From NCBI RefSeq assembly GCF_003334785.1, contig NZ_QOWV01000052.1: a DNA stretch of 3,108 nucleotides, one strand, 5' to 3'. The notes beneath the pieces are model-generated. The model was not told the origin of the DNA, did not search any database, and saw only the letters and a program-made list of their open reading frames with translations. The stretch comes from Escherichia coli (GTDB taxonomy: Bacteria > Pseudomonadota > Gammaproteobacteria > Enterobacterales > Enterobacteriaceae). The translations under genes and the position numbers were made by a program. Positions 2,411-2,994 of this stretch are shown piece after piece (the stretch's first letter is position 1; each line of letters begins with the position of its first letter).

Positions 2411-2644
2411 ATGAAAGGAAATGATCCAGTTGTTATTAATGGATATGGTTGTCCAGATTTGAGGTTTGTAGACAATTCAGATAGACTGTATATCATTGCC
2501 CATGGAAATACAGCCATTATTGGGGATGGCATGCATGGAACTAAAAAATTAAAGCCACATGAATTAGCCAAACTTTTATGTAAAGCAGGATTAACAAAAA
2601 ATTTTGTTGATGTGCGGCTTTTTTCTTGTGAGCTGGCCCCCTGA
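2411..2644 (+). pseudogene. 5' fragment of an enzyme-like gene (His-Gly motif protein), 3'-truncated by IS2-like insertion
   Basis: The ORF starts at the first ATG after the stop at 2387-2389 and encodes MKGNDPVVINGYGCPDLRFVDNSDRLYIIAHGN...HELAKLLCKAGL...FVDVRLFS. From ~2627-2629 the reading frame runs into the IS2-like left terminal repeat; the last codons (C-E-L-A-P) and the stop at 2642-2644 are IS-derived or junction-derived. Native coding sequence is therefore ~2411-2628 and the rest of the gene should lie beyond the IS, outside the window. Confidence 0.55.
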
Positions 2645-2669
2645 AATACCAGACAGTAGATGTCTCTTA
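2629..2669 (+). repeat. Left terminal inverted repeat (IRL) of the IS2-like element
   Basis: Collinear with the ~41-bp IS2 IRL, including the GGCCCCCTGAA core; the exact first base is uncertain by about 2 nt (TG at 2627-2628 or 2629-2630). Confidence 0.65.
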
Positions 2670-2994
2670 AAATAAGAGATAGGCTTGGATATATGTCTAA
2701 CACTAGTTCTAATTTTGAGATGGCTGGCGTTTTGTTAGGAAAAGAGGTGCGTAAACGTAAAACACCTCAGGAAAAAATCGCAATTATTCAACAGACTATG
2801 GAGCCGGGCATGACGGTGTCCCACGTGGCGCGTTTGCATGGAATTCAGCCCAGTCTGTTGTTTAAGTGGAAGAAACAATACCAGGAAGGAAGCCTCACTG
2901 CTGTGGCTGCCGGTGAAGACGTTGTTCCTGCTTCTGAACTGGCCGCTGCAATAAAGCAGATTAATCAGCTTCAGCGTTTACTGGGTAAGAAAAC
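2629..2994 (+). mobile_element. IS2-like element (IS3 family, IS2 group), 5' 366 bp only; interrupted at 2994/2995 by another IS
   Basis: 2629 onward aligns position-for-position with the IS2 left end as I remember it (here TGAGCTGGCCCCCTGAAATACCAGACA versus IS2 TAGACTGGCCCCCTGAATCTCCAGACA), followed by an InsC/OrfA homologue. Similarity to IS2 ends abruptly after CTGGGTAAGAAAAC at 2994. Sequence is related to but clearly not identical with canonical IS2. Confidence 0.75.

Follow-up and report, generated by a model that had tools for sequence, protein, structure and literature searches.

A probable ISEc48 remnant, interrupted by IS600, at the end of a decayed-looking type VI secretion cluster on an Escherichia coli plasmid

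Within a 3108-nucleotide stretch of E. coli DNA (termed the window), positions 2629-2994 were found to represent, almost certainly, the left end (366 bases) of an ISEc48 copy. ISEc48 is a 1336-bp element of the IS3 family whose nearest well-studied relative is IS2. The segment and an intact copy of the element (L004:1501-2836) are equal at 365 of 366 bases (99.7%), the sole difference being located at window position 2664. The relationship was further studied using a rebuilt remnant, prepared by deleting the interrupting IS600 element together with one copy of its AAC duplication, which was searched against 5426 complete E. coli genomes. The matches at ~99% in that collection were intact 1336-bp elements, and the 638-base rebuilt remnant was identical to L004:1501-2836 at 633 positions (99.2%), with five bases differing. 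The intact copies carry the RefSeq product name 'IS3-like element ISEc48 family transposase', with a programmed frameshift noted, and the name ISEc48 is used here on the basis of these product names of near-identical intact copies. Under the ISfinder convention, a sequence with at least 95% nucleotide identity to a reference element is the same element or an isoform of it, and the values observed against RefSeq-labelled ISEc48 were 99.7% and 99.2%. The ISEc48 identity of the segment is already catalogued and not new. The features of this part of the window are collected in Table 1.

Table 1. Features at the right-hand side of the window. L001 is the 15 kb around the window on plasmid NZ_AP022179.1, L004 holds an intact ISEc48 copy and L008 holds an uninterrupted DUF8616 gene.
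Feature	Window position	Strand	Basis
5' fragment of DUF8616 gene, cut at the left end of ISEc48	2411-2628	+	Homology to L008 5262-5825 ends at 2629
ISEc48 nt 1-366 (left terminal repeat, leader, orfA codons 1-92)	2629-2994	+	365/366 vs L004:1501-2836
ISEc48 left terminal inverted repeat (IRL), imperfect	2629-2675	+	Pairs with the right repeat in the intact copy
orfA codons 1-92 (helix-turn-helix DNA-binding protein), cut by IS600	2720-2994	+	Open reading frame list; HTH_Tnp_1
AAC, left copy of the 3-bp IS600 target duplication	2992-2994	.	Direct reading; right copy beyond the window, at L001 10259-10261
Right end of an intact 1264-bp IS600 (L001 8995-10258), continuing past the window	2995-3108	-	RefSeq 'IS3-like element IS600 family transposase'

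The limits of the segment, 2629 and 2994, had been proposed by a sequence-only reading of the window and proved to be exact. The sequence TGAGCTGGCCCCC begins at 2629, which corresponds to element base 1 in every intact copy examined, and the left flanks of those copies were all different. Homology between the window and the uninterrupted target gene stops at the same position. At the other side, 2994 is the final base ahead of IS600, whose terminal TGAGGT begins at 2995. The truncated orfA is covered in RefSeq by a pseudogene annotated as 'transposase, missing C-terminus' (L001 8720-8995), and the encoded OrfA fragment matches the Pfam family HTH_Tnp_1 (PF01527) over residues 11-88 with E = 3.8e-18. 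An Rfam scan of the entire window returned zero matches.

The IS600 element that ends the segment shares 99.6% identity with IS600 copies carried by Shigella sonnei plasmids, and deletion of IS600 together with one AAC was observed to restore the orfA frame (LLGKKTMEVEILKEAVEY). Past IS600, ISEc48 resumes outside the window and ends at nt 666 (L001 10561), beyond which the sequence belongs to another IS3-family element, widespread among E. coli, of which the 3' part is present. Within L001, ISEc48 is present only as positions 1-366 and 363-666. The copy comprises nt 1-666 of 1336, split after nt 366, and lacks both the DDE domain and the right repeat. Since it has neither a catalytic domain nor a right end, it cannot move or supply transposase and, judged from its sequence, this ISEc48 copy is an inert remnant and not a functional element. 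The open frame from 2720 runs into IS600 and stops at 3011-3013, giving 92 OrfA residues followed by EVYWQ. At most, and speculatively, a predicted 97-residue OrfA stub with the DNA-binding region could still be made. A promoter scan of positions 2500-3108 revealed no sigma-70-like site, which leaves expression of such a stub unsupported. A terminator-like hairpin is located at 3015-3032, within the IS600 end. In addition, several unrelated IS600 copies (H241-H247) were observed to align 15-20 bases past the end of IS600 into the window flank at 2975-2994, with ~92% identity; IS600 may prefer such a target sequence, or the copies may have inserted into similar transposase genes.

The 94-kb plasmid pWP7-S17-ESBL-04_2 (NZ_AP022179.1), whose E. 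coli host was isolated from Tokyo wastewater, matches the whole window with 100% identity at positions 73288-76395, and a plasmid of strain FDAARGOS_1248 matches it almost perfectly. In L001 the window is surrounded by what looks like the decayed end of a plasmid-borne type VI secretion cluster, comprising a frameshifted tssM, tssH, a gene with a VasL domain, a pair of small genes and a series of insertion-sequence fragments, with the eatA autotransporter gene a few kb beyond. The frameshift in tssM is the reason that the plasmid-borne secretion system looks decayed. The VasL/ImpA-N domain protein encoded on the plus strand at window positions 467-1618 matches TssA weakly (23.6 bits vs a cut-off of 230). 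Next to it, the plus-strand frame at 1784-2299 encodes 171 residues and carries the RefSeq name 'kinesin'; this frame is kept beside the VasL-domain gene in related plasmids. It matched no Pfam or NCBIfam family, and for this reason the name 'kinesin' looks like an annotation artefact. Window positions 1-77 (plus strand) are the end of a second IS600, which reaches upstream to L001 ~ 5100 and is inverted relative to the IS600 at 2995. This upstream copy is cut at about nt 978, is annotated as frameshifted and lacks its outer end. Between the two inverted IS600 copies lies the 2.9-kb end of the type VI secretion cluster.

The gene into which ISEc48 inserted was identified by comparison with related loci. 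In L008 the gene, annotated as 'DUF8616 domain-containing protein', is uninterrupted, and neither ISEc48 nor IS600 is present. The residual open reading frame in the window (2411-2644) extends 16 bases into ISEc48 and matched no NCBIfam family. The same insertion site was occupied in L006 (NZ_CP145709.1) by ISEc48 nt 1-666 and in L007 by nt 1-227, in both cases with no IS600, while the window plasmid carries nt 1-666 at this site, split after nt 366 by IS600. On these data, ISEc48 landed at the present truncation point of the DUF8616 gene, at the end of the plasmid type VI secretion cluster; it then lost everything past nt 666, which was replaced by the 3' part of the other IS3-family element; and IS600 inserted after nt 366 in this plasmid lineage, generating the 3-bp duplication. 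The position of the ISEc48 insertion, the replacement past nt 666 and the IS600 duplication are each visible in the present DNA. This order of events is likely, and for the last two we infer that the loss of the right half preceded the arrival of IS600 because L006 has the same site and the same truncation at nt 666 but is without IS600.

The sequence-only reading had also suggested that the element could help to identify the host lineage, and this idea held only in part. Of the 5426 complete E. coli genomes, 405 carry at least 80% of ISEc48, on chromosomes and on plasmids. A copy with 99% identity was also found on a plasmid of Klebsiella pneumoniae, and this spread makes the element a weak marker by itself. 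However, the two collections searched each yielded only two records with the ISEc48::IS600 junction (2994/2995), and because of this confinement the nested junction is a better lineage marker than ISEc48.

The relationship of the segment to IS2 was explored using a chromosomal reference copy of IS2 from E. coli strain 64 (L003:1865-3195, 1331 bp), named 'IS3-like element IS2 family transposase' in RefSeq. End-to-end alignment of 2629-2994 with this copy gave 70.3% identity, made up of 260 matching, 99 mismatching and 11 gapped columns, while in a blastn comparison just the last 227-228 bases of the segment were aligned, at 76% identity. Within the initial 28 bases of the terminal repeat, 21 positions agree with IS2, and 67 of 88 OrfA residues are identical (76%, E = 5e-47). 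A resemblance of this extent, at the level of sequence, is far above chance. The initial description of the terminal repeat and OrfA as collinear with IS2 but diverged was borne out by these values, and both of the N-terminal sequences quoted with it are real, one being present in the window and the other, MIDVLGPEKRRRRTTQEK, in canonical IS2. That the segment is simply a mutated copy (isoform) of canonical IS2 would be in keeping with this collinearity throughout, with the common repeat core CTGGCCCCCTGAA and with 'IS2 repressor TnpA' (NF006928) being the best NCBIfam match. Note, however, that the 92-residue OrfA fragment scores 144 bits against that family, under its curated cut-off of 229, and that another element matches the segment at 99.7%. 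Canonical IS2 identity is ruled out by the nucleotide identity of 70%, and the probability of the isoform reading is close to nil. For intact ISEc48, the OrfA part of a built, frameshift-joined protein reached 169 bits against the same cut-off of 229; the top specific NCBIfam matches of the joined OrfAB were IS2 TnpA (E = 6e-50) and IS2 TnpB (E = 2.6e-125), both under their curated cut-offs; OrfB is 62-64% identical to that of IS2; and the full-length elements share 66-68% nucleotide identity, depending on the alignment. The proposal that the segment derives from a distinct member of the IS2 group, and not from a copy of IS2 itself, therefore stands on the nucleotide identity of ~70%, the OrfA identity of 76% and the bit score below the cut-off, and a match to canonical IS2 above 95% was not found, 70.3% being the value measured. 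The segment could alternatively come from an IS2-group element that is new and unnamed, as RefSeq gives only the generic label 'IS3 family transposase' to copies sharing 96.5% to 98.7% identity with the reference copy. This is very unlikely: 365 of 366 bases match copies that are labelled ISEc48, a name already established in published mobile-element typing results, and the reading of an unnamed element was rejected because of this 99.7% match to intact labelled copies.

With the segment assigned to ISEc48, there is also the question of whether it belongs to a functional element, or to a composite transposon that could still mobilise the neighbouring type VI secretion genes. The inverted IS600 pair around the 2.9-kb segment, at window positions 1-77 and from 2995 onward, speaks for a composite transposon. 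The upstream IS600, however, is the cut and frameshifted copy without an outer end; no duplication around the pair was seen in a non-systematic look; and the IS600-bracketed segment was present in only two near-identical plasmids. ISEc48 itself has lost its right end and DDE domain. A unit of this kind that could still move is thus extremely improbable, and the inert ISEc48 remnant is the preferred reading.

Intact ISEc48 has imperfect terminal inverted repeats with TG...CA ends, an OrfA with a helix-turn-helix DNA-binding region and an overlapping OrfB with a DDE catalytic domain. By analogy with IS2, a -1 frameshift would fuse OrfA and OrfB to give the transposase, and this enzyme would move ISEc48 by a copy-out/paste-in route. 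The termini of the intact copies are TGAGCTGGCCCCC...GGGGGCAAGAACA, that is TG...CA, and a 38-nt inverted repeat was located in the intact copy, in which positions 10-47 pair with 1291-1328 at 74% complementarity; only the left repeat is retained in the window copy. When the frameshift-joined OrfAB of an intact copy was built, it scored 273 bits against the NCBIfam family NF033516 'IS3 family transposase', which has a cut-off of 160. ISEc48 thus appears to be a member of the IS3 family that is closest to the IS2 proteins. The orfA and orfB frames overlap as in IS2, and the programmed frameshift itself is a RefSeq annotation. The overlap region lies at L004 ~ 1920-1935 (ISEc48 nt ~ 420-435), equivalent to L001 ~ 10310-10325 and outside the window, and contains CGCGAAAATGG where IS2 carries the slippery run GCAAAAAAGTGG. 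At this point a conserved CGCGAAAATGGATAG is common to ISEc48 and its relatives (CGAAAAT replacing A6G), with an ATG in the orfB frame. Separate translation of OrfB was considered as a result of a TGA observed just ahead of the frame overlap in L030, one copy of the 77% relative, and was rejected, the TGA being a single-copy mutation; the 122-residue OrfA is kept in the other 28 readable copies.

Two unnamed relatives of ISEc48, each 1336 bp in length and each with CGCGAAAATGGATAG at the frame overlap as in ISEc48, were identified. They differ from it by 12% nucleotide divergence in one case (the 88% relative, L020:1195-2530) and by 23% in the other (the 77% relative, L026:1084-2419, also present on Klebsiella plasmids), and in both the first ~8 bases of the terminal repeat differ from those of ISEc48. 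ISEc48 and IS2 were also found to coexist as a nested pair: on the K. pneumoniae plasmid NZ_MW581615.1 (L005:264-2944), an intact ISEc48 interrupts a canonical IS2, of which positions 95-108 (14 bp) are duplicated. In the literature searched on ISEc48, the name was found in two papers, solely in lists from mobile-element typing tools and without a description.

The flanks of intact copies were compared to fix the ends of the element, and IS2 copies taken from the same scan and processed with the same script served as the control. The intact ISEc48 copies were those in L004 (1501-2836), L005, L010, L011, L013-L018 and L024. Thirteen distinct ISEc48 insertions were available, 11 of which are flanked by duplications of 14-16 bp, mostly 15. 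The single insertion of the 88% relative (L020) has a duplication of 15 bp, and the 77% relative (copies in L025-L042) has duplications of 15-16 bp at 12 of 15 distinct insertions, together with one of exactly 5 bp (L035). Taken together, ISEc48 and its two relatives gave duplications of 14-16 bp at 24 of 29 distinct insertions, a count in which the window copy, having no right end, is not included. In the IS2 control, 35 of 40 distinct insertions have duplications of exactly 5 bp. Duplications in the IS2 subgroup have been described as 5 bp, with lengths conserved in the IS3 family (2023 paper, PMC10045372), a value from which 11 of the 13 ISEc48 insertions depart. A search of the literature for 15-bp duplications in the IS3 family or the IS2 group found none, the sole relevant statement being the one that gives 5 bp. 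It is conceivable, though held at somewhat below even confidence, that the transposases of the sub-lineage formed by ISEc48 and the 88% and 77% relatives use a 15-bp stagger, one helical turn more than the 5 bp of IS2, and that this property is undescribed. The exact 5-bp duplication in L035 hints that one enzyme may access both spacings.

The segment itself matters little, as it belongs to a non-IS2 member of the IS2 group that is already catalogued and common in E. coli, and this copy is inert. Its practical use lies in annotation and typing: the ISEc48::IS600 junction at 2994/2995 is limited to two sequenced plasmids, while the shared truncation at ISEc48 nt 666 ties these plasmids to related ones, and the two together would give a dated order of events for a plasmid family with a decayed type VI secretion cluster. 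The sole part of wider interest is the occurrence of 15-bp duplications for ISEc48-type elements and 5-bp duplications for IS2 despite proteins that are 62-76% identical. If this is indeed undescribed, ISEc48 and IS2 would form a simple comparative pair for studying what sets the spacing of the target cuts (the stagger) in copy-out/paste-in transposases.

Compared with IS2, ISEc48 has in common the overall architecture, the length, the repeat core, the OrfA helix-turn-helix, the overlapping orfA/orfB layout and a 24-residue conserved protein block. The two elements differ at the frame overlap, where the A6G run of IS2 is absent from ISEc48, and in their target duplications, which are 5 bp for IS2 and 14-16 bp for intact ISEc48. 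Discrete classes of duplication length ~ 10 bp apart have been described for IS481-family elements and those of the IS1202 group, with 6 vs ~ 15 bp and 5-6, 15-17 and 24-29 bp, respectively (PMC10045372). These are different families, but the spacing of their classes is the same as that of the split between 5 and 15 bp observed here, and the ISEc48 lineage seems to be an exception to the 5-bp rule with the same one-turn step.
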